NCBI GenBank assembly: GCA_963752205.1
Contig: CAVVZG010000031.1
Coordinates: 11,282-75,281, forward strand
Reading direction: 5' to 3'
Source of the DNA: Bryobacterales bacterium
GTDB taxonomy: Bacteria; Acidobacteriota; Terriglobia; Bryobacterales; Bryobacteraceae
DNA length: 64,000 bases
Under the pieces are notes generated by a model. It saw nothing but the letters and a program-made list of their open reading frames with translations, was not told where the DNA came from and made no database searches. The first letter of the stretch is position 1; the number at the start of each line of letters is the position of its first letter. This document shows positions 3,793-49,853 of the stretch, in pieces. A program made the translations under genes and the position numbers.

Positions 3793-3951
3793 ACACCACC
3801 AAGCGGAACCTCAGAATATCCGCTCTTCTAATATTTTGCAATCAGCGATTCTCATTATTCGAACGCGGATAGAGGGCCCAAACACCTGAGCTAGGGTCCG
3901 GTTACACTGAGAGAATCCTGAAGGGTGCCAAACCTTGATATAGGAGGCTGT

Positions 3952-4410
3952 ATGGAAGCGATCATTTCAGATCTGTTGAACCGTTTCGAGAAGGGAGCGC
4001 TCTCGCGGCGGGGATTGATTCAGGGGCTGGCGATGCTGACGGCGGCAGGCGCCCAAGCCCAAGACACGGCGATCAAGCCCGTCAAGATCGATCATGTGAG
4101 CATTCAGGTGACCGACCTGCCGCGGTCGATTGCCTTTTACCAGAAGATATTTGGATTTACCGTCGTGAGCGAGGACAAGCCCAACGAAATCGTGCGGCTG
4201 GGCGCGGCCGGGAAGGTGTTGGTGTCGCTGCACCATAAGAGTCCCACGGGCCTGGTGGATCACTATGCGATCGGCGTTGAGAAGTTCAATAAGGAAGCTG
4301 TGACGCGCGAATTGAAGGAGCGCGGAGCGACTCCGGAAGAGAATCTGGATGCCGGATTTCACATCAAAGATCCCGAAGGAATGCGGGTTCAGATTGTCGG
4401 GCCAGCTTAA
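3952..4410 (+). CDS. VOC-family (glyoxalase / bleomycin resistance / extradiol dioxygenase fold) protein with a Tat-type signal.
   Basis: ORF 3925..4410. Start moved to ATG 3952, preceded by AGGAGG (3942-3947). Signal LSRRGLIQGLAMLTAAGAQA. VOC motifs IDHVSIQVTDL, FYQKIFGF, DHYAIGV, GFHIKDPEGMRVQI. Confidence 0.8.
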   Translation: MEAIISDLLNRFEKGALSRRGLIQGLAMLTAAGAQAQDTAIKPVKIDHVSIQVTDLPRSIAFYQKIFGFTVVSEDKPNEIVRLGAAGKVLVSLHHKSPTGLVDHYAIGVEKFNKEAVTRELKERGATPEENLDAGFHIKDPEGMRVQIVGPA

Positions 4411-4414
4411 CTCG

Positions 4415-4741
4415 TTAGTGGTTCAAAATCGGAATACTTTTCGACGCCGGCGGGGCGGGGATGCTTTGCAGGAACGCGTAGATGTCGGCGAGTTCCTGGT
4501 CCTTCACCACTTTGCTGGTGTACGGCGGCATTTCGCCCTTGGGGTTACGCACGTAGCGGCTGAATGCCGCGAAGGGAATCGGGTTCGGCGCCAGGCGCGC
4601 TCCGGCTCCCCCTTTCGCGTCGTGATCGTGGCACTGATAGCAACCATAGGCGTCGAAGATTTTCTTGCCGTTGGCGGCGTTGCCCGCGGGAGTTTGCGCT
4701 TCCAACACGCAGGCCATCGCGAGAAATATGAAGTAGCGCAT
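4415..4741 (-). CDS. Small periplasmic class I c-type cytochrome.
   Basis: 108-aa ORF with a signal peptide, a single CYQCH heme-binding site and a distal Met (KGEMPPY). Its start lies 8 nt after the stop of the upstream TPP-enzyme gene. Confidence 0.85.
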   Translation of the reverse strand: MRYFIFLAMACVLEAQTPAGNAANGKKIFDAYGCYQCHDHDAKGGAGARLAPNPIPFAAFSRYVRNPKGEMPPYTSKVVKDQELADIYAFLQSIPAPPASKSIPILNH

Positions 4742-4749
4742 GTTGGCCT

Positions 4750-6654: not shown

Positions 6655-6655
6655 G

Positions 6656-8053
6656 CTAACCGCCCCCTCCCACTTGCAGATACTTGCTGTGAACGATGGT
6701 CTTCGGGTCTGCATCCTTTCCCACCACCACACCATAGAACGGGTTCATCATTTCTTCCCACGTCATGGTGCCGTAGTACACGGTCTTGTTGGGATTGGGA
6801 TTGAACTTATTGTTCACCGAGTTGTCGAAATGCGCGTCGACGTGGAGGACGGTTCCCTTCGGGACCTTGATCGACGTGTTGTAGCCGAGTTGCCAGTTGA
6901 AGTCGTAATGCGGGACGCTCAAGATGGTCTTTTTGGTTCCGTCCGGATATTCCAGAATGTACGTCATGTCCTTGCCACGGAAATGCATGTGCGGCATCAA
7001 GTACACCAGTTCGGCATCCTGCAGGAACGTGACTTCAGCAGGTGGACTCAGCCAGTTGGGATCGTTCGGTGGAATCGCGAAGCGCTTGGCGTCAGTGGGC
7101 GAAGTCGTTAGGAACGAAACATAGCGGCGCTCCGGCGCCCTGTCGAGAACCGTGAAGCCCACCTTCACGTGATCGGTCACGGCGGTTCCATTGGGCGTGT
7201 AGTGCAAGTTGAAAGTGATATCCGATCCGGCGGGGATCAGCTTGGCGGCGTTGATGGCGCGATAGTCGGCGGCGAAGTTGCCGGGAAGGTAGCAATCCTC
7301 AGCGCCTCCCGGAGGCTGTGAGCCTCCACTTTGCCCCAAGCCGCGCGGGCCTCCGGCGACGGGACTGCCGTCGTTACTGCGCGGCGTACCACCGCCCAGG
7401 AAGGTCGGACCCTTTTCAGGACGCGCGGAGCCTTCTTCGTCGCGCTCCTTGTCGGCCCAGTAGGCGACGCCATATTTGTAGTTCGGGTTGTGCGGTAAAT
7501 AGCCGATGCAGATGTGATGCGTGACCGCGGGGAACTCGGGCTTGATCTGCACCGAGGTCACCCAAGTGTCCTTAGTGAAACCCGTCGGCATGATCACCGT
7601 GATCCATTCGACCACATTGTTTTTTGGACGGGCAGGCACATCGGTGACCGGCCCATCGACAATGATGTCCGGTTTGATGGCCCAGCCTTCCGGCCACACA
7701 ACGGCCACGGGGGCGTCCTTCGCGTCACCCTCGGGTGCGCCGGCATCCGCCCACTGCGCGATGGTATCGATCTCGTTCTGTTTGAGCGAACGGTCGTTCA
7801 GATACGGGCCATGCTGGGGATCGGCAAACCAGGGCGGCATCTTGCGCGCGAGCACCGCGGCCTTCATCGCCTTCGCCCACGGGCGAACGTTTTGATAGGT
7901 GAGAAACGACATCGGCGCGACTTGCCCGGGTCGATGGCAGGTCTGGCAATTTCTCTGCAGAATCGGCTCGACGTCTTTGTGAAATGTGACCGGCGCATCG
8001 GCGGCGAGAGCTGCGGAAGCCATGGTCAATGCGAATAAGGCAAGCAGGCGCAT
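6656..8053 (-). CDS. Heme-c-fused copper type II monooxygenase-like protein (PHM/DBH fold).
   Basis: 465-aa ORF with signal peptide MRLLALFALTMASAALA. CQTCH at aa 36-40. Candidate copper ligands: HH179-180 (AVTHHICIGY), H284 (FNLHYTPNG), H355-x-H357 (LMPHMHFRGKDM), M430/M435 (GTMTWEEMM). The spacings (about 70 aa between the last three) mirror the CuH/CuM sites of peptidylglycine alpha-hydroxylating monooxygenase, as recalled. Confidence 0.7.
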   Translation of the reverse strand: MRLLALFALTMASAALAADAPVTFHKDVEPILQRNCQTCHRPGQVAPMSFLTYQNVRPWAKAMKAAVLARKMPPWFADPQHGPYLNDRSLKQNEIDTIAQWADAGAPEGDAKDAPVAVVWPEGWAIKPDIIVDGPVTDVPARPKNNVVEWITVIMPTGFTKDTWVTSVQIKPEFPAVTHHICIGYLPHNPNYKYGVAYWADKERDEEGSARPEKGPTFLGGGTPRSNDGSPVAGGPRGLGQSGGSQPPGGAEDCYLPGNFAADYRAINAAKLIPAGSDITFNLHYTPNGTAVTDHVKVGFTVLDRAPERRYVSFLTTSPTDAKRFAIPPNDPNWLSPPAEVTFLQDAELVYLMPHMHFRGKDMTYILEYPDGTKKTILSVPHYDFNWQLGYNTSIKVPKGTVLHVDAHFDNSVNNKFNPNPNKTVYYGTMTWEEMMNPFYGVVVGKDADPKTIVHSKYLQVGGGG

Positions 8054-8054
8054 A

Positions 8055-9188
8055 CTATTTTGCTCCTCCTGACGCCACCTTGGCGCGGTCCGGATGCAGC
8101 GTCACTTTTTGCACCCGCCAGTTGTTCATGTCGGCGATGAAGAGAGTGTTTTCCGCGGGGCACGCCATGCCGTGGATCCAGCTGAACTGGCCGACGTCGT
8201 GGCCGGATTCGCCGAACATGCCTAGAATCTTGCCATCGAGCGAAAGCTTGTAAACACGGCCCGGTTCGTTGTCGGAAGTGTAGAGATACTGCGTGGGGCC
8301 TTGCGTGATGCAAATGGTCCAGGGTGCGGTTTCGTCGGGCGGATTGGCCGGCGCGTTGCCCAGCACGGGATGCCGCGACTTGTCGTACTTCGCGTTCAAA
8401 ACAATAAAGCGCTGAAAGTTCCCGTCACGATCGAAGACCTGGATACGGCGGTTGCCGCGGTCCGCCACGTAGACGTTGTTCTGGCGGTCGATGCCAATGT
8501 TATGCGGGGTATTGAACATGCCGGGGTTCTCATTGGCGTGCACCCCGCCGCTGCCGCGTTCGCCCCAGGACTTGATCCAGTTGCCGTGCTTGTCGAACTT
8601 GGCAACGCGCGAATTGATGTAGCCGTCGCTGATATAAATGTTGTCGTCCGAGTCGAAGGCGACATCGGTGGGAGCGCGAAAGTATCCGTCTAGCTGTGGA
8701 AGCTCCGGAAACACGGATGTCGCTGCGCCTCCACGGCCCAGGCCGTTGCCTTTGTAGTAGTCGGGCTCGTCGGGGCCTTCGGGCCTGCGGCCCAGATTCA
8801 GCGTGACCATGCCGGCCGGATTGAAGCGCATGGCTGCGTGTGTACCTTTGTCAACCACCCATAGGTTGTCGTATTTATCGAAGCGGACACCGTGCCCATA
8901 ACCGAGTCCGTAAACGCCTTTGCCAAGTTCACGGATCAGTTTGCCGGTGGAGTCAAACTCTAGAAGCTGCGTCGTGGCGTTGCCGTAGAGCGGACCGGAT
9001 GTCGCGCTGCCCGGGTGATTCAGCACCACGATCGTGCCTTTGGAATTGACGGCGACGCCTAGCACTTCGCCCAGGTTCAACTGATAATTCAGCTTGAGAA
9101 AGTTGGGGTCGGGATCAAAAGGGATCGTCGGAACCGCTGTTTGGCCGAACGCCGGCAGAGCCAGGAGTAGAAGTGTTGCGAAACGCAT
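8055..9188 (-). CDS. NHL-repeat six-bladed beta-propeller protein, peptidyl-alpha-hydroxyglycine alpha-amidating lyase (PAL)-like.
   Basis: ORF 8055..9245. Start moved to M20 (ATG 9188, MRFATLLLLALPAFGQ signal). Blocks VLGVAVNSKGTIVVLNHPG, GHGVRFDKYDNLWVVDKGTHAAMRFNP, FRAPTDVAFDSDDNIYISDGYINSRVAKFDKHGNWIKSWGERG and MFNTPHNIGIDRQNNVYVADRGNRRIQVF parallel the PAL domain of animal PAM (recalled: PTDVAV...VSDGYCNSRIVQF..., VADRENGRIQCF). The stop is 1 nt from the start of the PHM-like gene. Confidence 0.8.
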   Translation of the reverse strand: MRFATLLLLALPAFGQTAVPTIPFDPDPNFLKLNYQLNLGEVLGVAVNSKGTIVVLNHPGSATSGPLYGNATTQLLEFDSTGKLIRELGKGVYGLGYGHGVRFDKYDNLWVVDKGTHAAMRFNPAGMVTLNLGRRPEGPDEPDYYKGNGLGRGGAATSVFPELPQLDGYFRAPTDVAFDSDDNIYISDGYINSRVAKFDKHGNWIKSWGERGSGGVHANENPGMFNTPHNIGIDRQNNVYVADRGNRRIQVFDRDGNFQRFIVLNAKYDKSRHPVLGNAPANPPDETAPWTICITQGPTQYLYTSDNEPGRVYKLSLDGKILGMFGESGHDVGQFSWIHGMACPAENTLFIADMNNWRVQKVTLHPDRAKVASGGAK

Positions 9189-9247
9189 GTGGGAAGCCTC
9201 TCTATGTGCCTCCCGCAGCTTAATCCCACGCGGCGGCGGTGTCAATC

Positions 9248-10606
9248 TTACTTGGGAGCGCCGGCGGCCATGTCGTTTCGGATCACTTTTCCGCCCTTCA
9301 TGACGAACTTGACGCGCTGCAACTCAGTGATATCGGCGAGGGGGTCGCCGGAGACCGCGACCAAGTCCGCGAACTTGCCCTTTTCAACGGATCCGATTTG
9401 ATCCTGCCATCCCAGCGCCTCGGCGTTGATGATGGTCCCGGATTGAATCGCGTGCGCCGGAGTCATGCCGGCCAACTTCACCAGCGCTTCGAATTCCAGA
9501 GCCTGCGTACCGTGGGCGAAGGTGGCACCGTCGGCACCGCTGCCGGCCATGACCTTGATGCCTTTGGTAGCGGCGGCCATGGTGGCGGCTTTCGTGAAAA
9601 TCGGGATGATGCGGTACTTGCCGCCGGTGTTCTTCTTGTCGTTATCGTCCATGTAGGGCTCGGTGTAGCGGACGATGGTGGGGTCGTAGTACAGGCCTTT
9701 GGCGATCATCATGTTCACTTGTTCCTGATCGAGGCCGAAGCCGTGCTCAATGGTGTCGCAACCGGCGATGATGGCGTTCCTTTGGCCCTCGCCGCCGTAG
9801 ACGTGGCAACCGCTCTTCTTGCCCAGGCGATGGGTTTCGTCGATCAGGGCTTGGACGACGGGCAGCGGATAGGTGACTTCATATTGATCTTTGCCGGTCG
9901 GGCTGAACGAGTAGGCGCCTGCTGGATACAGCTTGATCCAATCGGCGCCGTGGGCGATCTCTTCACGTACGGCGGCGCGCGCTTCTTCCACCGTGTGAAC
10001 CGCGATGGGGTTGAGCGGGTTGACGGGAACAGCGGGGTCAAGAGGGTTGGCGCTCCACACGATCCCGCGCGTCGACACCTGGTAGCGCGGGCCGTCGATG
10101 CGTCCTTGATTAATGGCGTCGCGGACAGCGACGTCGCCGTAGCCATTGCCGTGCGAGGTCATATCGCGTGCCGCTGTGAAGCCCGCGCGCAGGTTGTTCT
10201 GCACGTTTTGAACGGCGATCAGCATGTAGTCTTCGGTGGTGCCGTTGGGCTTGCGCTGATTGAACATGTGGGTGTGGGCGTCTATCAAGCCCGGCAGAAC
10301 GGTGGCTTGGCTGAGGTCGATCACCTCGAAGCCGGCGGGAATTTTCACTTGGGATGCCGGGCCTACTTCGGTAATGCGGTCGCCGGCGATGAGCACCACT
10401 TGTTTCGTCAACATCTGGCCGGCCTTGCTGTCGAACAGGCGGCCGGCGCGGACGGCGTACGAGCGGGCAGCGGGAGGGCACTGGAAGATGCCGCCGTCGG
10501 AGCCGACGCAGGGCGGCATACCTGCTCCGCGCCACGGAGCCGGAGGCGGTTGCGGCTGTGCCCACAGCGCGGCCGCACCTAATAAGATTCCGAGAACTAA
10601 TTTCAT
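9248..10606 (-). CDS. Secreted metal-dependent amidohydrolase (prolidase / imidazolonepropionase-like superfamily).
   Basis: 452-aa ORF with signal MKLVLGILLGAAALWAQ. Motifs VLPGLIDAHTHM, SGCHVYG, CDTIEHG. ATGA start/stop overlap with pabB at 10603-10606. The antisense ORF 9239..10582 is judged spurious. Confidence 0.85.
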   Translation of the reverse strand: MKLVLGILLGAAALWAQPQPPPAPWRGAGMPPCVGSDGGIFQCPPAARSYAVRAGRLFDSKAGQMLTKQVVLIAGDRITEVGPASQVKIPAGFEVIDLSQATVLPGLIDAHTHMFNQRKPNGTTEDYMLIAVQNVQNNLRAGFTAARDMTSHGNGYGDVAVRDAINQGRIDGPRYQVSTRGIVWSANPLDPAVPVNPLNPIAVHTVEEARAAVREEIAHGADWIKLYPAGAYSFSPTGKDQYEVTYPLPVVQALIDETHRLGKKSGCHVYGGEGQRNAIIAGCDTIEHGFGLDQEQVNMMIAKGLYYDPTIVRYTEPYMDDNDKKNTGGKYRIIPIFTKAATMAAATKGIKVMAGSGADGATFAHGTQALEFEALVKLAGMTPAHAIQSGTIINAEALGWQDQIGSVEKGKFADLVAVSGDPLADITELQRVKFVMKGGKVIRNDMAAGAPK

Positions 10607-11900
10607 CGTTTGATCTCCTCTAACGCCCGCACGAAGGCGGCGGCTTTGTGGCTGCTCTCCAAGAACTCAGTATGGGGATCGGAGTCAGCCGTGATACCGC
10701 ACCCGGCATAGTATCGCACTTGGCCGTCTGCCGTGAAAGCCGTGCGGATGGCGACGGACAGCTCCATGTTCCCGTCCATCGAAATCCAACCGATGGCGCC
10801 CATGCAGGGGCCGCGCAGTTGGCCTTCTTCGCGCATGGCGGCGCGGATGGCTTCAATCTTGGGCGCACCTGTGATGGATGCTGCGGGAAACGCGGCCCTG
10901 AGTAAATCGACCAATCCGCCGCGAAGGCGTCCCCTAACCGTCGAATACAAATGATGGACGGTCGGGAGTGTCATCAGCGCGGCGTGCTGGATGACTTCCA
11001 CTGATCCGGTTTCGCACACTCTGCCGAGATCGTTGCGTACTACGTCTACGATCATGGCGAGTTCTGCGCGATCTTTTTCGCTGGTGAGGAGTTCGGCTGA
11101 CAGCGCCTGATCTTCGGCGGCGTCGTGAGCGCGCGGGCGTGTTCCCTTGATCGGCGACGACTCAACATTTCCCGCGTCCACCTTCAGGAACAATTCGGGA
11201 CTGATAGAAAGGATCGCCCGCTGGTCGTCTATTTGAATGTAGGACTCGTATTGCGCGGGGCTGATCGCACGCATTCGTTGGTAGAGGTCCCAAGCCAGCG
11301 CTGGGTCCAGATCGGTTTCGAGGCGGCGGCAGAGGTTGGTCTGGAAGATATCGCCGGCGCGGATGGTGGCCACGATTCGTTCGACCGACGCTTCAAAGGC
11401 TGCGCGATCTGGGCGGCTGCGGAGCGCCGGTGGAGTTCGCCAAGCGGTAGTTGCCGAGTGATGCCATTGATGATTCTCCAGGGTTAAGGCGGAATCGTAT
11501 AGGGCCGAAGTAGAACTGCGGAAAAGTGAAGTCCGGCCGGGGGATAGGTCCCAGGTCCTCGATTTCGGTGGCGAGGTCGTAGGAGAGAAATCCGGCGAGA
11601 ATGGCCTCTGAATGGCCGCGCCAAGCTTCGAGCATGGCTTCTAATACATCGAAGGCGGGGGCCGAGAGTTCGACCGTTCCCGCGTCGCTGGTGATCACGG
11701 CAGATCCGTTGGAGTAGGTTACCGTCGCCAGGGGGTTGTTCAACAGGAGGGGCTTTGTCCCAGTCACGTATGCGAAACCCGGTACAGGGTGCAACGATTC
11801 GTCAATTTGATCGGTACTTGCTCTGCGGCGGAGGCTTGGAGGGCGGAGTACGGAATGCAGCTTCGCCACCAGCGCGTGTAACCGCTCCGGTGGGGTTCGA

Positions 11901-11911
<11 letters not shown>
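10603..11911 (-). CDS. pabB: Aminodeoxychorismate synthase component I (PabB-like chorismate-binding enzyme). The reading frame is interrupted by a 1-nt indel near 11492-11496.
   Basis: ORF 11393..11911 carries the N-terminal part (FLSYDLATEIEDLGPIPRPDFTFPQFYFG). Shifting one frame at the GGCCC run continues LYDSALTLENHQWHHSATTAWRTPPALRSRPDRAAFEASVERIVATIRAGDIFQ into ORF 10603..11373 (SPELFL, GTRPR, MIVDVVRNDLGRV, FPAASITGAPK, GAIGW). Confidence 0.75.
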
Positions 11912-15690
<3,779 letters not shown>

Positions 15691-15748
15691 CCGATACCTA
15701 ACACAACGGACGCTGAACCGATCTTTATGATTCCTTTGGCATTTCTTT

Positions 15749-16747
15749 ATGCCTTCTTCAGGCCTGCCAGCCTATGCTCTAACTGGGGGACTTGCCATGC
15801 CATCAGCCCAGCCGGGAAGCCAGTTCGATCACTACGCCGTCAAGGAAGTCATCGCGCGTAGCAACACATCCTCGATTCTGCGGGCCACCGACCTGCGCAG
15901 CGGCCAAGACATCGCCCTCAAAATGCCGCACCCGGAAGTGGAAGGCGACCTTCTCTTCTACCAGCGTTTTTTGCGGGAACGCGAGATTTGCGAAAGCCTG
16001 GATCATCCCGCGGTGGTGAAGGCATTTCCCGCAGGCAAGCGGAGCCGAATGTATATTGCGATGGAGGTCGCGCCGGGACAAAGGCTCCGTCAGGTTCTGA
16101 GCGATCGCGGCAAACTTCCTGCCCGGCAGGCCGTGAAGATCGCGGTGGCCGTCTGCGAAGCGCTGGACTACATTCACTCCCAAGGCGTGGTGCATCGCGA
16201 TCTGAAACCGGAGAACATCATGATCGACGGCGAAGACCGCATCAAATTGATCGACTTCGGCATCGCCAGCCGCAGCGGCGCCCGCCGGTTGACGTTCGGC
16301 AAGCTGTCGAACGTGATGGGCACCCCGGATTACATAGCTCCCGAGCAAGTGAAGGGCAAACGCGGCGACGCGCAAACCGACGTCTACGCACTGGGCATAA
16401 TCCTTTATGAAATGCTCACCGGCGAGACGCCGTTTCCCGGAAACGATCCGTTCGTTGTTATGAACGACCGGCTAGTGAAGAATCCGCTCCCACCCCGCGA
16501 GATTGACCCGAGCATCACCCTTGAACTACAGGAAATTCTCTACCGGGCCTTGGAAAAAGACCCGAAAAACCGCTACGCGAGCGCCCGGGAGTTTGCGGAC
16601 GAACTACTCCATCCAGACGGCGTGCAAATTTCTGATCGCGGGCGCAACCGCGATCGGCGTACCAACCCTGCGCTCTTCTTTGGCGTACTGGCGGCGATCC
16701 CAATAGCCATTCTCGGGCTCGTGCTCTTCGTCACACGCCACGGATAG
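15749..16747 (+). CDS. Hanks-type serine/threonine protein kinase with a C-terminal membrane anchor.
   Basis: VALK-type Lys (IALKM), HRDLKPENIM, DFGIA, GTPDYIAPE. C-terminal TM LFFGVLAAIPIAILGLVLFV. The start may be the internal M17 (15797). Confidence 0.85.
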   Translation: MPSSGLPAYALTGGLAMPSAQPGSQFDHYAVKEVIARSNTSSILRATDLRSGQDIALKMPHPEVEGDLLFYQRFLREREICESLDHPAVVKAFPAGKRSRMYIAMEVAPGQRLRQVLSDRGKLPARQAVKIAVAVCEALDYIHSQGVVHRDLKPENIMIDGEDRIKLIDFGIASRSGARRLTFGKLSNVMGTPDYIAPEQVKGKRGDAQTDVYALGIILYEMLTGETPFPGNDPFVVMNDRLVKNPLPPREIDPSITLELQEILYRALEKDPKNRYASAREFADELLHPDGVQISDRGRNRDRRTNPALFFGVLAAIPIAILGLVLFVTRHG

Positions 16748-16761
16748 AGCAACTCAGGCAA

Positions 16762-16806
16762 TTTGAACGGCCGACCCCCCTTCGCCCAAGGCAGTTTCCG
16801 GCAATT
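16762..16806 (-). repeat. Degraded copy of the tRNA-Pro 3' region (T-loop to anticodon) plus a shared non-tRNA flank.
   Basis: 16762-16793 tttgaacggccgaccccccttcgcccaaggcag vs 37162-37193 ttcgaacgcccgaccccctgcgcccaaggcag (about 29/33). The next 13 nt, tttccggcaattc, resemble the flank of the 29.8-kb copy (tttccgcgattc), not the tRNA. Confidence 0.6.
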
Positions 16807-17006
16807 CGTTATACAGGAATGTTTCTGAGTCGATTGAAAGATTTGATTGGACCCAGGCTTGGGTTGCAGCTAGACTTTAATCTCTAAAGTGTTACACTCG
16901 TCCGCCCCTGCCCGGTCTGCGGGAGCTTCCAACCCAGGTAGTTGAAATCGTTTTCGACGGTATGTTTCCGTCCAGGTTCCCGCAACCCATTGATCCCCAA
17001 AACACT

Positions 17007-18044
17007 ATGACAAAATACAAACTCGAATACATCTGGCTTGACGGAAAACAACCGGTTCCCGAGCTACGCGGGAAGACCCTGCTCAAACAATTTGAGAAAC
17101 CACCGACGCTGGCCGACCTGCCCAATTGGGGGTTTGACGGCAGTTCCACGATGCAGGCGGAAGGCAAGAGCTCCGATTGCGTGCTGAAGCCGGTGGCTCT
17201 CTATCCGGATGGAAGCCGCAAGGACGGTTATATCGTTCTGAGCGAAGTGATGCACCCGGATGGGACCCCGCATTCCACCAACATGCGCGCGACCATCGAG
17301 AACGACCCTGACCTGTGGGTTGGACTGGAGCAGGAATACTTCCTGTATCAAGACGGGCGTCCGCTGGGTTTCCCGGAAGACGGCTACCCCACCACTCCGC
17401 AAGGGCCCTATTATTGCGGTGTCGGCTACAAATACATGGGCAACCTGGCCCGTACGATCGTCGAAGAACACTTGGAGCTGTGTCTCGCCGCCGGTATCAA
17501 CCATGAAGGCATCAACGCCGAAGTGGCGAAAGGCCAGTGGGAATTCCAGATCTTCGCCAAAGGCTCGGCCAAGGCGGCCGATGACGTGTGGACGGCGCGC
17601 TATTTGATGATGCGTCTTTGTGAGAAGTACGAAGTAGATGTGCAATTGCACTGCAAGCCGATCAAGGGCGACTGGAACGGATCGGGCATGCACTGCAACT
17701 TCTCGACGAAATACCTGCGCGAAGTGGGTGGCAAGGAATACTTTGAAGCCCTCATGAAGGCGTTTTCCGACAACGTCGCCGCGCACATCGCTGTGTATGG
17801 CCCGGATAACCATCTGCGTTTGACCGGTCTGCACGAAACGCAGGCCATTGACAAGTTCAGCTATGGCCTTTCCGATCGCGGCGCTTCCATCCGCATGCCT
17901 GTGAACTTCATCAAGAACGGTTACAAGGGCTATCTGGAAGATCGCCGCCCGAACTCCGAAGGCGATCCCTACCAGATCGTCTCGCGCGTTCTGAAGACGA
18001 TCAATAGCGTTCCCAAGCCTGCTATGGCCGCTAGCGGGGTTTAG
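17007..18044 (+). CDS. glnII: Glutamine synthetase type II (eukaryote-like GSII).
   Basis: ORF 16962..18044. Start moved to ATG 17007 (MTKYKLEYIWLDG). Motifs GFDGSST, LEQEYFL, NAEVAKGQWEFQ, NGSGMHCNFS, GASIRMP. Confidence 0.9.
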   Translation: MTKYKLEYIWLDGKQPVPELRGKTLLKQFEKPPTLADLPNWGFDGSSTMQAEGKSSDCVLKPVALYPDGSRKDGYIVLSEVMHPDGTPHSTNMRATIENDPDLWVGLEQEYFLYQDGRPLGFPEDGYPTTPQGPYYCGVGYKYMGNLARTIVEEHLELCLAAGINHEGINAEVAKGQWEFQIFAKGSAKAADDVWTARYLMMRLCEKYEVDVQLHCKPIKGDWNGSGMHCNFSTKYLREVGGKEYFEALMKAFSDNVAAHIAVYGPDNHLRLTGLHETQAIDKFSYGLSDRGASIRMPVNFIKNGYKGYLEDRRPNSEGDPYQIVSRVLKTINSVPKPAMAASGV

Positions 18045-18091
18045 AACGGGAATAGTTTCTCAGCAATCGGGCCCAAAAAAGGGGAGGTGTT

Positions 18092-19281
18092 ATGCAGCTT
18101 ACAGAAACGGGACTTCCTTCCGAAGTAGAGTCTGAAAAGACTCAGGATAGTTTAGCGACGATCACATCCGGCGAACCCGAGATAAAAGATGAAACCGCCT
18201 TTCTCGAAGAGCCGGAAACTAGCTTTCAGACTGCCATACCGCTGGAAAGAATAGTCCCAAAGCAGGAAAAGAAAAAGCTCAAAGCCCTTCCTGAGAAAAA
18301 GAACCTAAAAAACAAATTGAAGGAGAAGAAAAGCTCCACCAAAGTGCTGGCGGGAGCGTTCCCCATGGTCGCGCTGATTGACGAACAGGTGCGAACCAGC
18401 ATTCCCGAAGAACTGGTTGCCAGGGTAAAGGCGGCAAAGAGCAAGAAACACATCATCAGCTCCAACTATCCCTATACGAAAGCAGATGAAGGAGTCGGAC
18501 GTATCTGGAAGAGATCGAACTGCTGCAAATTGAACTGGTCAAGATGCAGGCTTGGGTCAAGGAAGTTGGCGAGCGCGTCGTGCTGATCTTTGAAGGGCGC
18601 GATGCCGCGGGCAAGGGAGGAACGATCCAGCGGTTCACGGAAAACCTCAATCCTCGCGGCGCCAAGGTCGTGGCGCTCGCCAAACCCTCGGACACCGAGC
18701 GGGGCCAGTGGTATTTCCAGCGTTACATCGAAAAACTTCCCACCAAAGGTGAAATCGTCTTCTTTGACCGATCCTGGTACAACCGCGGCGGCGTCGAACA
18801 TGTGATGGGATTTTGCACCCCGCACGAATATCTGGAATTCATGCGCCAGACGCCGGAATTTGAGCGGATGATGGTGCGCAGCGGGATTCGATTCTATAAA
18901 TTCTGGTTTTCCGTCAGCCGGGAGGAACAGCTCCGGCGGTTTCTTGGCCGGGCGCAAGATCCCCTCAAGCAATGGAAACTCAGCCCGATGGATGTGGAAT
19001 CCCTGGGCCGGTGGGAATCCTATACCAAGGCCAAGGAAGCCATGCTTTTCTACACCGACACCGCGGATGCGCCGTGGACGATTGTGCGCTCCGACGACAA
19101 GAATCGCGCTCGCCTCAACGCGATAAAGCATATCCTGCACACCATTCCCTACGCGGGCAAGGACACGGATATCGTCAGTGCCCCAGATCCGCACATCATC
19201 GGGTCGGCCAAGGCGATTTACGAACACGGCGAAAATTCCCATTCGCACGCCGTTGCGCATCATGTTGCTAGCTCATCCTAA
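18092..19281 (+). CDS. ppk2: Polyphosphate kinase 2 (class I PPK2) with a long Lys/Glu-rich N-terminal extension. Frame break between 18476 and 18508.
   Basis: ORF 18544..19281 is the PPK2 domain (FEGRDAAGKGG, NPRG, ERGQWYFQRY, FDRSWYNR, WKLSPMD, APW..V.SDDKNRARLN). ORF 18092..18586 (GGGGAGG RBS before its ATG) ends in SNYPYTK, a motif that precedes the PPK2 core in S. meliloti-type enzymes as recalled. The core's YLEEIELLQIELVKMQAWV continues in another frame. Confidence 0.75.
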
Positions 19282-19665
19282 GCCAGACTTTTGGCCGGAT
19301 ATCTCGACCCGAATCGATGTGACTCTGTCAGGGGGTAGAACGGACGTTCGAGAAACTGGGGGAATCTGATCTGTGGCGGAAAACAAACCTAAAATCCAAG
19401 CGACGTTAGGCTTAACCGGCCTGACCATGAACCAAGTTCTCGCGTTTCATTCGCCCACTATTGAATCGAAAGAGCCGGGTGCCTTGAAAATCGCCGTCCA
19501 AAAGGGCGGGATTCGCTCTGACGGAGAACGTTCTTTCCCGCTGCCGGTCGAAACCGGGCGGGGGCAGGGCGCGTAACCGCCTTCTTTCCCTGCGGGGAGA
19601 ACCCTCGAGTTCCTCACTTTTGCAAACGGAAACGTGGGGCTGCTCTGTTCCAGAGCAGGGCCTAA

Positions 19666-20166
19666 CTAGTCGCCCGCCCCAACCATCGGAGCTAGCGTGG
19701 GCACTTCGACGTCCTTGAACACGGCTGTGCTATCGGATGCTTCCGGCATAACCGGGAACTTGAACCCGCACTTTGGACAAGGCTCCGCCAGCGCTTGCTG
19801 CTCTTGGTGAAGGTCGTAGGGCTTGTCTGTGATTAGGGCGCAACAGGGACACACTCGGATCAGCCGGGTATTCTTCAGTTCGAAGTTGGTGATGATATCC
19901 TCCATGATGGCGCCGCTGCGAACGGCCCACTCCTTGGCTTGCTTGTGGTAGGTGTTCATGTGCCAATCTTTGAGGGCTTCAAAGCCGGTCCAGAGGCTGA
20001 TCTCGTTGTACCAGGTGGGATCCTTGGGATGGACCCACCAAGTGAGGTGCAAGAACCCAGGCAGCGTCTTTAGCTGATTGCGCGTTTCTCCAAACAGCAA
20101 CTTAAATTTCTCGTAGCCGTCGGGGCTCGAGAACCGCACTCTTTGCATGCTTTGATAAATGGCCAT
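19666..20166 (-). CDS. ABM (antibiotic biosynthesis monooxygenase)-like domain protein with a C-terminal CxxC..CxxC zinc ribbon.
   Basis: ORF 19666..20211. Start moved to M16 (ATG 20166) behind GGAGAAGGAGA. Ferredoxin-like ABM pattern (FLHLTWWVH...ISLWTGFEALKDW). C-terminal CPCC...CPKC. Confidence 0.55.
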   Translation of the reverse strand: MAIYQSMQRVRFSSPDGYEKFKLLFGETRNQLKTLPGFLHLTWWVHPKDPTWYNEISLWTGFEALKDWHMNTYHKQAKEWAVRSGAIMEDIITNFELKNTRLIRVCPCCALITDKPYDLHQEQQALAEPCPKCGFKFPVMPEASDSTAVFKDVEVPTLAPMVGAGD

Positions 20167-20220
20167 CTGATCTCCTTCTCCGTCAAAGAAAATAGTAATC
20201 TCACCTAGCACTAAATACGT

Positions 20221-23200
20221 TCAGAAATCCAACCGCAGCGAGACCTGTCCCGTCCGGTTCCCTCCCTGCCCCGCGGTCTGCGCGGACTGCAAAGCTCCGA
20301 AGGTTGACGGGCTGCTGATGGCGGTGGCTGGCGGCGCAAAGTTCGTGTGATTCAAGACGTTGGTGAAGGTAGATTCGAATCTGAGCCGCATGCGCTCCCT
20401 GATTTGAAAGGTCTTCGACAACCCCGCCGAGACGGAGATTGTTCCCGGACCCTCCAGGATACCGACGCCCGCATCGCCGATTCTTCCCGCGCCCGCCGGT
20501 GTCGGTCCAAACGCGTTAATGTTCCACTCGAGACCGGGAGTCAGGCCTGAGGTCGGATTTCCAATCGCGTCCGGGCGCGCTGTGATGCCGCCCCGCCCTA
20601 CGATGTCGGTGTTCGATTGATCCGCCGTGGGGCTGATGGTGGGCGTGAGATAGGGCCCAGTTTGCAACAGCGTGACGGTGCTCACATTCCAACCGCCCAA
20701 CAGCGCGTTTACAATCGCGGAGTTGCTGTGGAAATTGCGGCCGGTGCCAAACGGCAACTGGTACATACCGGTCAAAAGGAACCGTTGCCGCGGCATGCCG
20801 GCGACGTTTCCGCGAGCCGCGCGGAGGTCGAATTGATCGTAGGAGGGCGTAAACAAGAGGTTTTCCGAAGTAAATCCCCCCGGAGCGTCGCCTTGGGCGT
20901 CGCTAATGTTATGGGCCCAAGTGTAGTTTCCCTGAAAGGATAGTCCGTGCGACGTCCTTTGCGTGGCTTCGAAGGACAGCCCCTGATAGTTGGCAAATCC
21001 CGCATTTGCGCTGTAATTGATTTCGATCCAATTCTGATAAGGAGCGCGCGGATCGACGTAGGGACTAGGTACATAGGGCTGCTTGCTCGGCGGGATCGCG
21101 TTGTAATCTTCCTTCACGTTCATCCGGTAGGAATTCATCCCGGAATAGGTAACTCGTGCGGCCAGGGCAGATGTCAACTGGCGTTCGATCGTTACGCTCC
21201 ATTGTGCTGTTTGAGGATCCTTGAAATTCAGGCTCATGCCATCGTAGAGCCCAGTCCCTCCGTACTGTGCGGTGGTGGATGCGGGAGAAGTTTGCGGAAA
21301 TGTGAACAGCGGCACACCGTTGTTGTTGTTCGAATACGTGTAGGGCGCACCCAGCGGAATGCCGAGAAAATCATAGGCCAGCTGCCCCAAGGGGGTTTGA
21401 GTGAAAATGCCAAACCCCGCGCGAATGACGGTCTTATTATCTCGAAACGGGCGGAAAGCGATACCGATCCGTGGATCGTAATCACCCCAATAGGTGTTCC
21501 GCAGGCTCTGAGACAGGTGATTCTGGCTCGCGGTTACTACATTGCTACAAGGAAGCGTCATGTCCCTCGTGGGCAGGCTGCAGGCATTGAAGGAGATCAG
21601 AAAGGCGTTGTAGTTGGCCTGCAGCAGCGGGCTGGACGGCACTGTTTTGTTGAGGAGGATGTCTGGAACTACGATGTCGCCGTTCCGCGGATCGAAGTTG
21701 GCAATGTCGCCTTGGTTCTCTGTAAATTCGGGAAGCAGCTCCCACCGCATTCCGAAGTTCACGGTGAGCCGGTCGTTTACCTGCCATTGATCTTGGGCGT
21801 AAAACCCCCATTGAACACTCGGTTCATTCGTGTTGGGACTGCTTCCGACAATAAAATCGGTATTGGGTGCGCCCAGCAGGAAATCGCCGAAGGCGCTCCC
21901 CGTGAATACGCCTTGGTTGAACGTGAAGGCGCCGAAATCATCCGATTGACCCCACCTCACTACAGTTTCATAGAAGACGCGGCGCGCGTCTATACCGAAA
22001 CGGAGAGTGTGCTTCCCCATCGTACGGCTGATGTTGTCCGTGAACTGCATGGTTTTTGACTGGCCCGGCCCGTCCTTGTCCCGGCCGATGGGCGTAAAGC
22101 CGGTGCCGTCGGAAAAGTTGAAGGTCGGAAACGCTCCGGTACTCGGGTGATTCGCGAAGCTAATACCGGTCAAGCCAAGTTGGTTGTCGGCCGCGGCGCC
22201 CTGGATTGGAAAAATAGTGTTAACTAGGCTATTGGTAAAACCGAAGCGAAACTCATTCACCATCTTGGGAGAGATGGCGTAGTTATAGGAAACGATCAAA
22301 CTCCGGTCATGTTCCGCATTCAGGTCGTTCGGCAATAGAGGATTCGCTGGGAGGCCCAATTGACCTGAGTCTGAGAGCAAGTTCTTCCAACTGAAACGGG
22401 CATAAATCTGCTGGTTGGAAGTGATGGACTGATCCAGCCTGACATCAAAGCCGTTGGTATTGGAAGGGATGGGCTGGAGCGTTTCATAGTTGTAGCCGCT
22501 CCCGGAGCCACTGACATTGGGCAGCGGGTAATACTCGTTGAGCAACCTTAGGGATACTGGATTCAGCATGGACGTCGGAATCGTGTTGTTCGCGAAAGGC
22601 AGTCCGCTATAGGGATTGATCAAGGAATTGGAGGGCAGACCCGTCTGCGGATTGACGAGAGGAAGCTCATTCAGATTTCCGTTTCGCTCCGCTAGCGTCG
22701 GTACCAAATATTGCTCTGGAGTCGAGGTCCTGCGGCGATTGCCCTCGTAATCGACGTAGAAAAATGTCTTGTCGTGGCCGTTGTACAAATGGGGAATCGT
22801 TACGGGACCGCCGAAGCTGCCGCCAAAAGTATTGAACCGTTTGGGCGCCTTTGACGTGAAGTTGAGAACGGTGGCGTCCAGCGCGTCATTCTGCAAATAC
22901 TCAAACAGGCTGCCGTGAAACTGGTTGGTTCCGCTTTTGGTGATAAACGTCACATCCGCCACTTGGGAAAATTCGGCGCTGTTGTTGAAGGCTGTAACTT
23001 TGAGTTCGGCCAGACCTTCGGACGACGGGTAGGCGTTCTGTAGAGAGCCGTTGGCGGTGACATTGGCCGTGGAAATTCCATCGACGGAATAACCAGTCAT
23101 CGAATAAGTGGCGCCTCCGACCTGTATGTTGCCCTGACTATCCGTGATGACGTTCGGAGATAAGGCAAGCGAGGCGAGCGGGCTCGTGGTTTGGGCTCTG

Positions 23201-46575: not shown

Positions 46576-46581
46576 TTGTAT

Positions 46582-47724
46582 ATGCTGCGCTGGCTACTCG
46601 CAGCGGCGCTCCTTCCGCTGGCGTTTGGGCAGCCGCAGTCCAAGTGGACGCTCCAGTATTTCTACGATCAAGAAGGTAAGGTTCTCGAAATCACCGATCT
46701 CGCCTTCCCCTCGGCGACGCGCGGCATCGCAGTAGGAGCCATCGTCGATCGCGAAGGCCGCCGGCCGCAGTTCACCGCGCTGGTCACCAGCGACGGCGGC
46801 TCGCATTGGGCCTTGGTCCCGTTGAAAGAATACCCACGCTCGCTCTTCTTCCTGGATGAAATGAATGGGTGGATGGTCACCGGCGAAGGCCTGTGGTTCA
46901 CACGCGAAGCCGGCCGCAGTTGGACGCGCATCGCTGATCAGATCAAACCAAATAAAAAACTCGCGGACGCGCCGCGCGGCGGTCTCATCTTGCGCGTTTG
47001 GTTTCTCGACGAGCAGCACGGCTATGCCGTGGGATTGCAGAAGTCGGCGCTTGAAACTCACGACGGCGGCCGCACCTGGACTCCACTCGAAGAAGCCGCC
47101 AAGCCCACGTCGGATCCCGCCTTCACCGTGTATTCGCACATTGCTTTCGCTGATGCCCGGCGGGGATTGGTTTTGGGCTCTTACCTGCCGCCGAGCGCGC
47201 GCCAGGACTTGGGCTACGACTCGCCCCAGCAAACCTTGTCTCGCCGCCAGGTGCCGCGGCTCATGATCGAAATGGACACGCGCGATAGCGGCGAAGTCTG
47301 GAAGTCGGGTACGGCGCCCCTACTTGGCTCCGTGAACAGCCTGCGTGTAGCCGGATCAAGCGGGCTGGCTGTGTTCAACTACCTGGACTCCTTCGCATGG
47401 CCCGCGGAAGTTTATCGCATCGACTTGGCAACAGGACAAAGCGAAAGTGTGTTTAAGCAGAAGGACCGCCGGGTGACGGATACTGCAATCTTCGCGGACG
47501 GCCACGCGTTTCTCGCCTCCGTGGAGCCACCCGGCAAGCTGCGCTCAGCGCCGATCCCAGGCAGAATCAGAATGCTCGAAAGCGACGACCTGAAAAATTG
47601 GCGGGAAATGCCAGTCGATTACCGCGCCGTAGCACAATCCCTGGTCTTGGCCGGCCCCGACCCCGATCATTTGTGGGCCGCGACGGATACCGGGATGATT
47701 CTGCGCCTTTCGGCCGCGCATTAG
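46582..47724 (+). CDS. BNR/Asp-box repeat beta-propeller protein (Ycf48 / sialidase-like fold).
   Basis: ORF 46576..47724. ATG at 46582 (MLRWLLAAALLPLAFG signal). Asp-box-like TSDGGSHW, REAGRSW, THDGGRTW. Confidence 0.7.
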   Translation: MLRWLLAAALLPLAFGQPQSKWTLQYFYDQEGKVLEITDLAFPSATRGIAVGAIVDREGRRPQFTALVTSDGGSHWALVPLKEYPRSLFFLDEMNGWMVTGEGLWFTREAGRSWTRIADQIKPNKKLADAPRGGLILRVWFLDEQHGYAVGLQKSALETHDGGRTWTPLEEAAKPTSDPAFTVYSHIAFADARRGLVLGSYLPPSARQDLGYDSPQQTLSRRQVPRLMIEMDTRDSGEVWKSGTAPLLGSVNSLRVAGSSGLAVFNYLDSFAWPAEVYRIDLATGQSESVFKQKDRRVTDTAIFADGHAFLASVEPPGKLRSAPIPGRIRMLESDDLKNWREMPVDYRAVAQSLVLAGPDPDHLWAATDTGMILRLSAAH

Positions 47725-47837
47725 GTTGTTAAACAAGTGTTACAAGTTCTGTTTTATCCACAAATTGTCCACGCTCACTTCCCCGTAAATATCTGATTAC
47801 AAGCCAAATATACATTGAGGAAAGGCTTTCTTTTTCC

Positions 47838-47866
47838 TTGACGAAAATAGCCCCCGGGCGCATGAT
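47838..47866 (+). promoter_or_regulatory. Candidate sigma-70-type promoter in front of the ORF-free region.
   Basis: TTGACG (47838-47843), a 17-nt spacer, CATGAT (47861-47866). Preceded by an unusually AT-rich stretch (47725-47835). Sequence match only. Confidence 0.3.
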
Positions 47867-47872
47867 GGCTAT

Positions 47873-48486
47873 GGTTCCAAGAGGTTCGAAGGACAGCGAG
47901 CCAAGCGGGAAGTAGCGGAGCTGGAACGTTGATCCGTCGCGCGGTGGTACGTCACAACTATTACAACGCGGCGGGGAGCGAAGGCAGATCGGGCAACTCG
48001 CTATGGTAAGTTTATCCGGCTGAAACTGGGCAGAGCGCTAAGATCTGGAAGGATCGAGAGGTCCTGAAGGGGAGCGGAGGTCCAGCGACAGGCGGAGAGC
48101 TTTAGAACAGGAAGTTGGCAACGGGCGACTCGCGAAGAACGACCCTGTCAGGCGAAAAAAAGTCAGGCGAGGCCGGGAGTGGGAAGCCGAACGGGCCAAT
48201 TGAAATTCTAAGGCGGCTTTGAAGATGTAGGCCAGGAACGTCGACCCGGCCGCGGGGATTTGCCGCAAGGCAGGACTTCGCTGCAGGAGAGTGAAAGGTC
48301 GCATCGAGAGGCAAACTTCTACCGGAACGGAGAGCGGACGCGCACCAGAGCTACGATCCGCGGCTGAATAAAACCGGCTGCGGGGAGCGAAGGGCCTACG
48401 TCACATCCGGTCCGGATGCCGTGTTCAGGCCGTGCATGCCGGTCGGAGAGCGAGCAGTTCTACGGGTCACTTGGAACCATTTTTTT
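47873..48486 (+). ncRNA. Candidate large structured or protein-sponging ncRNA. Family not recognised; ends are approximate.
   Basis: No ORF of credible length or composition on either strand across 47725-48562. The plus strand is purine-rich with 24 GGA triplets in 47881-48480. Recurring motifs GGGGAGCG(A/G)AGG (x3) and CGGAGAGC (x3). Local stems such as CCGTCGCG(47935)...CGCGGCGG. T7 run at 48480-48486. Confidence 0.3.
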
Positions 48487-48562
48487 GCGCGGTCCCGCCT
48501 TCGCGCAACGCCCGGCGATAGACCTCCAATTCTGGTCGTGCTGCTCCGGGTGTGCGCAATCC

Positions 48563-48943
48563 TTACTGCAGCGACGAATCCTGCTCGACGTCCCGTTCCT
48601 GGTGACGCCAACTGAACTTTTCCTTACACTTCTTAAAACTGGCGAAGTTGCAGCGGCAGGCCACGCAGCGATAGGGAGTCGCGCCCAGGCGCAGCTGAAT
48701 CACGGTCCAGTGCGGCGGACTATAGTGGACTTCACTCCACGTCGAAAGTTCCTGACGGTAGCACTTGGGGCAGCGGGCATATTTCCAGGCGGCGGATTCC
48801 CATGTGCTGGTCCGCCAGCGCGTTTCGCAGCGGCGGCAGCGCAATGGATAAATGCCTGCTAGCGATCCGCACCACTCCCCAAACCCTCTGCGGTGGGCCA
48901 CACGCGCGTCGCGCGCGCCGCATTTGGGACAAGCAAGTTGCAT
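48563..48943 (-). CDS. Cys-rich zinc-ribbon protein (four CxxC pairs), function unknown.
   Basis: ORF 48563..49042, trimmed to M34 (ATG 48943) behind GGAGG. MQLACPKCG...CRRCETRW...CPKCYRQ...CVACRCNF. 22 nt downstream of the class IV aminotransferase gene. Confidence 0.55.
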   Translation of the reverse strand: MQLACPKCGARDARVAHRRGFGEWCGSLAGIYPLRCRRCETRWRTSTWESAAWKYARCPKCYRQELSTWSEVHYSPPHWTVIQLRLGATPYRCVACRCNFASFKKCKEKFSWRHQERDVEQDSSLQ

Positions 48944-48965
48944 TGGTCCTCCGAAGACCGTTGCG

Positions 48966-49853
48966 TTAATTATAGACCGGTTTCGCGCGCCGGCTGACCG
49001 AATGCTTGACGCGGGCGGAGAAGGCGTCGCGCAGCCGGTCACAAATCGCGCGTCCTCCTTGAATTTCCAGGCCCTCGATAGCGGCGGCCGGGAGCAGCTC
49101 GCGCGTAGTCGAAGTGATAAATATCTCTCGCGCGGACTTCAGGTCGTCCGGGAACAACGTCTTTTCGCCAACCGCGATGTCCCCATCGCGCACTTCCTCC
49201 AGCAGCACCGCACGTGTGACGCCCGCCAGGCACCCTGACGATAGCGGCGGCGTCCAGACGCGGTTTTCGGCGTCCACCACAAAAACATTAGCGGACGTGC
49301 ATTCGGAAATCTCGCCGCGTTCATTCAGCAGGATTACTTCGTCCAGACCTTGCTCGTGGGCGCGCTCGTAGCGCGTCAGATTCTCCGCCCAGGAAATATA
49401 TTTGGTTCCGGCAAACTCACTGGCTGCATGGCGTCCGTCGGGGACCAAGCCCAGCTTCACGCTGCTCGGCCAGCGCACCACGTCCACGGTGAAAGCCACC
49501 ACGTCGAAATCGCGAGTGATGCTGGGGCCTTCAAAGAGTCCCCCGCGATTGCGTACCACAGCGACGCGCAGTGTTGCGTTCAAGGGCTGGCTGGACGAGA
49601 CCTGATTGGCCTCGATCAAGCGATACAATTGCGACTCCAGCCAGTCCGCCTGCGCCGGGAAGGGAACTCGCATGCGCGCCGCATCGCTGCGCATCCGCTG
49701 CCAGTGCCGGTCGAAAGCGAACATCACGCCGTTGTAAACCCGCAGCGTTGAAAATATGCCCCAACCGGAGAGGAATCCTATTTGTCCCGGCGAGAGGCTG
49801 CGCTCAGCGGAGTCGCGAATGTCATCGTTATGCAGCAGGAAGCGGTGCAGCAT
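48966..49853 (-). CDS. Fold-type IV (class IV) aminotransferase family: aminodeoxychorismate lyase / branched-chain or D-amino-acid aminotransferase-like.
   Basis: 295-aa ORF. ...GWGIFSTLRV..G..F.FDRHWQRM..., GTKYISWAENL, ECTSANVFVV, GVTR, FITSTTRELLP. Confidence 0.8.
   Translation of the reverse strand: MLHRFLLHNDDIRDSAERSLSPGQIGFLSGWGIFSTLRVYNGVMFAFDRHWQRMRSDAARMRVPFPAQADWLESQLYRLIEANQVSSSQPLNATLRVAVVRNRGGLFEGPSITRDFDVVAFTVDVVRWPSSVKLGLVPDGRHAASEFAGTKYISWAENLTRYERAHEQGLDEVILLNERGEISECTSANVFVVDAENRVWTPPLSSGCLAGVTRAVLLEEVRDGDIAVGEKTLFPDDLKSAREIFITSTTRELLPAAAIEGLEIQGGRAICDRLRDAFSARVKHSVSRRAKPVYN

Follow-up and report, generated by a model that had tools for sequence, protein, structure and literature searches.

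A 64,000-nucleotide (nt) stretch of a Bryobacterales genome (contig CAVVZG010000031.1; here termed the window) contains a long gap, 47725–48562, between two convergent genes: a BNR/Ycf48-like beta-propeller gene at 46576–47724 (+) and a gene without a Pfam match at 48563–49042 (−). The original prediction, made from the sequence alone, had proposed that this gap encodes a large non-coding RNA, ~0.6 kb in length, which starts from a promoter within the gap and ends at a T-run, and had offered two readings of it, a CsrB/RsmZ-type protein sponge and a novel structured RNA. The gene coordinates on either side agree with the proposed gap, and conservation, covariation and expression give strong support to the RNA gene and to the second of the two readings. 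Positions 47873–48478 (+) almost certainly constitute an independent gene for a large structured non-coding RNA, the mature form of which is 606 nt long, as delimited by conservation, by read depth in RNA runs and by adapter junctions. We number the RNA from the first G of GGTTCC (47873) to the last C of GGAACC (48478), such that RNA position p is window base 47872 + p.

Alignments of homologs show a sharp onset of conservation at GGTTCCAAGAGG and its end at GGTCACTTGGAACC. Upstream of the RNA only two elements are conserved, TTGAC and G(C/T)ATnnT, 17 nt apart and with a freely varying spacer, which is the signature of a promoter. A promoter scan located the predicted TTGACG-N17-CATGAT site in the window, with the −35 hexamer TTGACG at 47838–47843 (+) and the −10 hexamer CATGAT at 47861–47866 (+), six bases before the RNA 5′ end; TTGAC is invariant in 27 of 27 aligned homologs from two families. 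From this pattern we infer that the conserved TTGAC-N17-CATnAT is a sigma-70-type promoter. The predicted run of seven T residues is likewise present, at 48480–48486 (+), just past the closing helix of the RNA (P1), and in every homolog GGAACC is followed by a T-rich stretch. It is the probable site at which transcription stops; a terminator scan there found no local hairpin. The few RNA ends that we observed indicate that the U tail is apparently not retained, and the adapter junctions at 48477 point to trimming of the 3′ end as far as the helix.

The assertion that the gap holds no credible open reading frame stands in substance. Mechanical reading frames of 70–88 amino acids do occur on the pyrimidine-rich minus strand, and the substitution pattern excludes them; homologs contain stop-free stretches of 84–207 amino acids. 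Variability by codon phase (0.304, 0.293 and 0.306) reveals no periodicity, and most deletions are not multiples of three (355, 118 and 94 deletions leave remainders of 1, 0 and 2, respectively). The substitution and indel patterns together rule out a coding or decayed protein gene. The plus strand is as purine-rich as had been described (61.7% purine, with a GC skew of up to +0.30).

Transcription of the region was found in soil metatranscriptomes. We aligned six such runs to the window, four at an identity of at least 90% and three at an identity of at least 97%, with one run in both sets. Each run placed 1,300–21,000 unitigs over 47873–48478, with a summed word depth of 10^5 to 6.6 × 10^6, and none of the six placed a single unitig on the flanking genes. 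A DNA run (X1, a moss metagenome) covered genes and gap alike at a flat ~7.3×. RNA depth sets in within the bin starting at 47873 and ceases within the bin 48458–48496, and adapter sequence abuts 47872/47873 (five records in one run) and 48477 (three records in two runs). The RNA is an independent transcript, and what the soil libraries contain of it coincides with the conserved block to the base. Altogether, 21 RNA or probable-RNA runs from many studies contain 31-mers of the RNA, each holding a quarter to two-thirds of them.

The RNase P RNA of the window genome provides a reference for these levels. In the same runs it attained a comparable depth only across its universal core, common to many phyla; its lineage-specific parts ranged from 5 × 10^2 to 1.2 × 10^6, mostly below 3 × 10^5, and the depth of our RNA was tens to thousands of times that of these parts. 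The abundance of the RNA is clearly on a par with or above that of classical stable RNAs, and it ranks with the most abundant non-ribosomal RNAs of the soil metatranscriptomes analyzed.

Covariation among relatives proved extensive. An alignment of 79 representatives yielded 132 pairs with RNAalifold, 96 of them with compensatory double changes, and the resulting model comprises 170 pairs in 26 helices, with compensatory changes in 127 pairs. In this model 89.7% of alignment cells form standard pairs, 2130 cells carry double changes and the covariation score is 0.488; when partners are slid by 1–3 columns, the corresponding values are 35–45%, 457–625 and 0.08–0.12. None of 500 shuffles equaled any observed structure value. 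A large number of G-U pairs that never vary (columns 12:748 and 46:137 among them) are compatible with the plus strand only. A scan for further long-range helices or pseudoknots returned two weak 4-bp candidates and nothing convincing.

These compensatory base changes show a fold consisting of a closing helix, five arms and a 3′ hairpin, all on the plus strand. In P1, the 5′ strand at 47873–47888 (GGUUCCAAG.AGGUUCG) pairs with the 3′ strand at 48463–48478 (ending in GGGUCACUUGGAACC); the outer 9 bp are invariant in the 79 sequences, and the inner pairs covary. Arm A, the 5′ domain, spans 47900–48007, where RNAalifold helices 3–5 are 89–99% paired and include 17 pairs with double changes. A central domain at 48008–48318 is closed by the helix 48008–48012/48314–48318, in which each of the five pairs is supported by compensatory changes, with pairing in 97% of cells, and encloses arms B (48013–48098), C (48114–48200) and D (48215–48313). 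Arm E follows at 48322–48415, and the 3′ hairpin, with a covarying 5-bp stem, at 48428–48444. Arm C additionally contains a symmetric AACGGG/AACGGG element that is rich in non-canonical G.A pairs. Two loci carry lineage-specific insertions of ~35–45 nt that resemble extra hairpins, between arms C and D in L016 (G003:C5) and in arm B in L093; the junctions that hold them are otherwise conserved, and these places tolerate expansion.

Two repeated words had drawn attention to the region. The first, GGGGAGCG(A/G)AGG, does occur three times, at 47973, 48069 and 48382, the second copy lying 13 nt from the predicted 48082; the second, CGGAGAGC, is also present three times, at 48093, 48328 and 48444, of which the first had been placed about 10 nt off. 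Judged from its sequence context, GGGGAGCG supplies the non-bulged strand in modules of the kink-turn type, the partner strand of which has the form GC-NNN-GA-UCC. A kink-turn (k-turn) is defined by a Watson–Crick C helix, a 3-nt bulge, tandem sheared G.A/A.G pairs, a non-Watson–Crick 3b.3n pair and then an NC helix (quoted in PMC9723947). At the level of sequence, all these defining elements, familiar from Kt-7 of 23S ribosomal RNA (rRNA) and the k-turns of SAM-I and T-box RNAs, recur five times here, one module in each of the five arms.

Across an alignment of 116 sequences, on which all k-turn and loop counts are based, the five modules have a 3-nt bulge in 109–116 sequences, the G.A/A.G pairs in 105–116 and a C-G pair at position −1 in 96–115; their C helices covary, and the 3b.3n pair is non-Watson–Crick. 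Four of them (a, b, c and e) are particularly uniform: the bulge is exactly 3 nt in 114–116 sequences, the tandem G.A/A.G is present in at least 96%, the pair before the bulge is C-G in 83–99% (at least 95% in three of the four) with a covarying next pair, and 3b.3n is U.G, A.G or G.G, followed by C-G. The purine richness of the region is largely due to these modules and to other G.A-rich non-canonical helices.

The individual modules, all on the plus strand, are as follows. In k-turn a, the bulged strand CUGGAAC-GUU-GA-UCC (47921–47935; 3-nt bulge in 116/116, G.A/A.G in 115–116/116) faces GGG-GA-GCGAAGG (47973–47984), the first copy of the first repeated word, and the extended C helix reads C-G, A.C<->G.U, A.G, G.A and G.A. 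K-turn b pairs CGC-UAA-GA-UCU (48036–48046; 114/116 and 111–114/116) with GGG-GA-GCG (48069–48076), the second copy; its −1 pair is C-G in 110 of 116 sequences and its −2 pair covaries among G-C, G-U and A-U. K-turn c combines UCGC-GAA-GA-ACGA (48130–48142; 116/116 and 112/116) with CCGG-GA-GUGG (48173–48182), has a covarying C helix and shows U.G, A.G or G.G at 3b.3n. K-turn d consists of CCAGGAAC-GUC-GA-CCCGGC (48232–48250; 3-nt bulge in 109/116, G.A in 111/116 and A.G in 105/116) and GCAGG-A-GA-GUGAAAGG (48283–48298), with an extended C helix as in k-turn a and a −2 pair that covaries among G-C, A.C, G.U, A-U and U-A. K-turn e is formed by GAGC-UAC-GA-UCCGC (48348–48361; 115/116 and 114–115/116, with a C-G −1 pair in 112/116) and GCGGG-GA-GCGA (48380–48390), the third copy.

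The corresponding strand of Kt-7, GGGGAGCC, is similar to the non-bulged GGGGAGC strand found here, and k-turns a and d share an extended C helix in which C-G and a covarying R-Y pair precede three further purine–purine pairs (A.G, G.A and G.A). Archaeal 23S rRNA has about six k-turns in 2,900 nt; five per 606 nt is an unusually high density. We infer that the modules would actually kink the arms.

The loop of the 3′ hairpin, U followed by GCAUGC, contains a self-complementary 6-mer at 48434–48439 (+) that is a candidate kissing-loop site. The 6-mer is a perfect Watson–Crick palindrome in 107 of 116 sequences, as GCAUGC (91 sequences), GCUAGC (7), UCUAGA (3), GUAUAC (3), GCGCGC (2) or UCAUGA (1); three further sequences have GCAUGU or GUAUGC, palindromic with G.U, and six have GCAUGA or GCUAGA, which retain a 4-nt palindromic core. 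The variants are scattered over unrelated branches of the family, with compensatory changes at positions 3/4 (AU to UA or GC) and 2/5 (C-G to U-A). Because these positions are unable to pair within one hairpin, the simplest reading is an intermolecular loop–loop duplex, through which the RNA would form homodimers or larger assemblies; a single palindromic loop alone predicts a dimer. The retroviral dimerization initiation site is likewise a hairpin loop with a 6-nt self-complementary sequence, the natural variants of which stay self-complementary, whereas here the loop belongs to a bacterial chromosomal RNA with no packaging role and is a candidate for self-association. The principle of palindromic kissing-loop dimerization is the subject of a review cited within PMC12286853.

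We determined how widely the RNA is distributed. A 641-nt stretch is single-copy in the window genome, and of 24 genomes from the same genus, 22 carry full-length homologs with 72–96% identity; in a second family, BLAST matched only the ends of the RNA. Searching a degenerate 5′-end pattern against 185,579 species genomes recovered at least 120 contigs. Among the 80 contigs listed, nearly all are labeled Bryobacterales, Bryobacteraceae, Solibacteraceae, Candidatus Solibacter, Sulfopaludibacter or, more broadly, Terriglobia/Acidobacteria, and one is labeled Arcobacter. The distinct full-length copies (n = 116) are mostly 590–613 nt long, with identity to the window copy as low as 52%. A covariance model of the first 136 nt (R1, the 5′ domain, based on arm A) matched 140 of 301 genomes of the order Bryobacterales, in 65 of 90 genera and with 1–3 copies each. 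In a phylum-wide sample (401 genomes, 227 genera) it matched the window's own family only, with the proviso that very divergent relatives may escape stricter filters, and 2.9 million viral contigs gave no match to the RNA. Several genera of the family and two near-complete genomes from the window's genus lack both a 5′-model match and the invariant 3′ 13-mer GTCACTTGGAACC, which is at the expected place in carriers and missing from 15 of 16 genomes without the RNA. The RNA is confined to the order Bryobacterales (Acidobacteriota). Whole genera without it include g15, g16, g30 and g33.

Comparison with known RNAs returned no relative. A scan against Rfam 15, which the original prediction had suggested, gave no usable match: nothing reached the gathering threshold in the window or E ≤ 1 in 11 homologs, and at E ≤ 10 the region had one chance 11-bit match to H19. 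As a family, the RNA is new to Rfam 15 and to the searchable literature. Housekeeping RNAs have genes of their own elsewhere in these genomes, so a divergent RNase P RNA, 6S RNA or transfer-messenger RNA (tmRNA) was rejected: the RNase P RNA scores 280 bits on contig C183 of the window genome, and 6S RNA and tmRNA are each found at other loci in nine of ten genomes. ARAGORN detected no tmRNA in the window genome, which is 78% complete. As a separate observation, a further, incomplete match to the RNase P model (44.5 bits, covering model positions 223–303) lies at G000:C183:2047–2128 (−) (L022), on the contig that also bears the genuine gene, at a distance of ~6 kb.

To our knowledge, very few large ornate bacterial RNAs of obscure function exist, namely OLE, ROOL, GOLLD, raiA and HEARO, and each large ornate RNA has opened new biology. 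Recent work by cryogenic electron microscopy (cryo-EM) reportedly revealed three of these large RNAs to be self-assembling particles. OLE RNA is, like ours, ~600 nt long, intricately folded, conserved and very abundant; it contains a functional k-turn that is a protein site (PMC9723947) and is an RNA-only homodimer (PMC12286853). It differs in its hosts (Bacillota rather than Acidobacteriota) and in having one k-turn where our RNA has five modules; the OLE k-turn is recognized by the L7Ae-family protein OapC/YbxF, of which we found no homolog in 16 genomes, and OLE lies beside oapA in an operon, whereas our RNA has its own promoter and BNR/Ycf48-like, zinc-ribbon and aminotransferase IV genes as neighbors (OapA itself was not searched for). 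The OLE model (RF01071) gave no match at E ≤ 10 in the window, nor at E ≤ 1 in the 11 homologs.

ROOL and GOLLD are likewise large, ornate and highly expressed. Together with OLE they form homo-oligomers with kissing loops, and the quaternary kissing loops of ROOL and GOLLD covary (PMC12286853). Their Rfam models had no match in the window or the 11 homologs. ROOL and GOLLD are often phage- or tRNA-linked and assemble into multimeric nanocages; our RNA, by contrast, is chromosomal, sits in a gene order conserved over part of the Bryobacterales and has no match in viral contigs. Given the failed model matches and the differences in taxon, partners and neighbors, the RNA is not a member of the OLE, ROOL or GOLLD families. 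We regard it as a class of its own, and a new one, among the large ornate bacterial RNAs, a kind that is only loosely defined.

The explanation that best accommodates these observations, to which we assign a probability of roughly 55%, is that the locus encodes an uncatalogued 606-nt Bryobacterales RNA that serves as a self-associating architectural RNA or the core of a ribonucleoprotein (RNP). The five k-turn modules would bend the arms and brace a compact particle, and two or more copies would join through the palindromic loop. In this role the RNA would act as OLE, ROOL and GOLLD do, and neither as a base-pairing regulator nor as a CsrA sponge. The mechanistic element taken by itself, a self-associating architectural RNA, we consider an even bet. 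The more far-reaching proposal, an undescribed ornate class in which a five-k-turn framework self-assembles via a covarying palindromic loop into a natural RNA nano-object of Acidobacteria, with a function unrelated to that of characterized RNAs and an abundance among the highest of the non-ribosomal transcripts in a dominant soil lineage, falls slightly short of even odds.

Acidobacteria are among the most abundant and least tractable soil phyla, and this would be the first large ornate RNA from them. Its levels are extreme in soil metatranscriptomes of many studies, where it is presumably classed with the unassigned or intergenic sequences; equipped with a covariance model, work on soil transcriptomes could annotate a large body of reads and use them as a lineage marker. 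With its sharp ends, 606-nt length, five modules and one palindromic loop, the RNA lends itself readily to cryo-EM and to simple self-association tests. If self-association is true, RNA quaternary structure would extend further as a general property of large bacterial RNAs.

Several points weigh against the architectural reading. Both the kinking of the arms and self-association rest on sequence patterns. Positions 1/6 of the loop could pair within the hairpin and close a 4-nt loop, so the intermolecular argument rests on the changes at 2/5 (9 sequences) and 3/4 (14 sequences). No partner protein has been identified. A k-turn binder of the L7Ae/YbxF type (PF01248) is absent from 16 Bryobacterales genomes, whereas the same search matched 7 of 14 control genomes; the kinks, if formed, would therefore need stabilizing by tertiary contacts or by some other protein. 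The zinc-ribbon family encoded downstream does not co-occur with the RNA, being absent from five of six genomes of the second RNA-bearing family. The RNA itself is missing from two near-complete (99%) genomes of the same genus (G001 and G043) and from several genera of the family, and its absence from such close relatives implies that it is dispensable. The 5′ and 3′ ends rest on few adapter-bearing unitigs. Summed unitig depth is a crude measure that pools related species, and rRNA-depleted libraries favor stable structured RNAs. We found no description of the RNA in the searchable literature, with subscription-only papers outside the reach of these searches.

Of the alternatives, the one that survives best is a protein-titrating or scaffold RNA, in which the near-identical k-turn modules (GA-UCC / GGG-GA-GC) bind several copies of one protein to store, sequester or organize it. 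6S RNA sequesters RNA polymerase in this manner, and OLE has been proposed to act likewise on bS21. Conservation of the modules exceeds the needs of a k-turn, with U.G at 3b.3n and C-G at 4b-4n recurring in three of them, and the very high abundance of the RNA, the protein-binding role of the OLE k-turn (PMC9723947) and the frequent presence of a basic double zinc-ribbon protein nearby would all fit. Against it stand the missing L7Ae-family gene, the distribution of the zinc-ribbon family, which occurs in genera without the RNA and is scarce in the second family with it, and the lack of any other conserved neighbor. We consider this alternative unlikely, while noting that it overlaps and is compatible with the architectural reading.

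A large ribozyme, the active site of which would be built from conserved unpaired purines and from junctions rich in G.A, is less probable still. The size of the RNA, its dense invariant junction nucleotides and a complexity comparable to that of RNase P and OLE are what such a ribozyme might look like, and a passage in PMC11332333 notes that large ornate RNAs have long been suspected of being ribozymes. Our RNA, however, has no similarity to known ribozyme models, the aligned contigs show no self-cleavage junction and the gene is dispensable in close relatives. We know of no catalysis so far from OLE, ROOL or GOLLD.

The sponge reading of the original prediction, according to which the RNA titrates CsrA through many GGA motifs, is very improbable. 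CsrB/RsmZ sponges are likewise non-coding, purine-rich and GGA-containing, and a recount of 47881–48480 returned the same 24 GGA triplets, but the claimed enrichment to roughly twice the expectation does not hold: from base composition 20.0 triplets are expected, sequences shuffled with their dinucleotides preserved contain 20.5 ± 2.9, and 72 of 500 such sequences have 24 or more. Conservation extends to just 7 of the 24 triplets, 4 of these being G.A steps of k-turns, and none of the 24 is central in a hairpin loop. CsrA itself (PF02599) is present in 6 of 9 tested carriers and 0 of 5 non-carriers, a small sample confounded by phylogeny in which CsrA may simply track flagellar genes; neither G007 nor G042, a complete genome with two copies of the RNA, encodes it. 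Every defining feature of the sponges that we tested (GGA enrichment, loop presentation and CsrA co-occurrence) fails here, no Csr/Rsm model matches and the single rigid, covarying, multi-domain fold is unlike that of Csr/Rsm sponges.

That the locus holds no independent gene at all, being instead a divergent housekeeping RNA, an untranslated or leader region, a decayed protein gene or a mobile-element remnant, is scarcely credible, because despite the constant distance to the BNR/Ycf48-like gene described below and the stop-free stretches in homologs, the housekeeping RNAs are located elsewhere, RNA depth is zero on the neighbors and starts downstream of a conserved promoter, there is no coding signature and the RNA occurs at 1–3 copies per genome, in varied contexts for second copies and never on viral contigs.

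The genes around the RNA show conserved order over part of its range. In 36 of the 80 representative loci, ~155 nt separate the end of the BNR/Ycf48-like gene from the start of the RNA, and this spacing holds down to an RNA identity of 53% and protein identities of 35–45%; it looks like inherited gene order, and the two are not co-transcribed, the soil RNA runs having shown no read-through from this gene into the RNA. Beyond gene order by descent (BNR/Ycf48-like upstream, aminotransferase IV downstream), the loci have no other conserved neighbors. The convergent downstream neighbor, at 48563–48943 (−), encodes a basic protein of ~126 amino acids that matches no Pfam family and whose four CxxC pairs mark it as a double zinc ribbon; translation probably starts with MQLACPKCG at 48943, 22 nt past the stop of the aminotransferase IV gene. 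This zinc-ribbon gene accompanies the RNA in 21 of the 80 representative loci, and its family is found in 208 of 301 Bryobacterales genomes, often in 2–8 copies and also in genera without the RNA. Such occurrence, together with its absence from five of six genomes of the second family that has the RNA, rules the protein out as an obligate partner.

Second copies of the RNA lie in other gene contexts, and many genomes (G042, G216, G063, G140 and others) have two or three unlinked copies. Run X30, a 2011 data set of 2 million letters with a single-organism label, holds 27% of the RNA 31-mers and might point to a cultured carrier.

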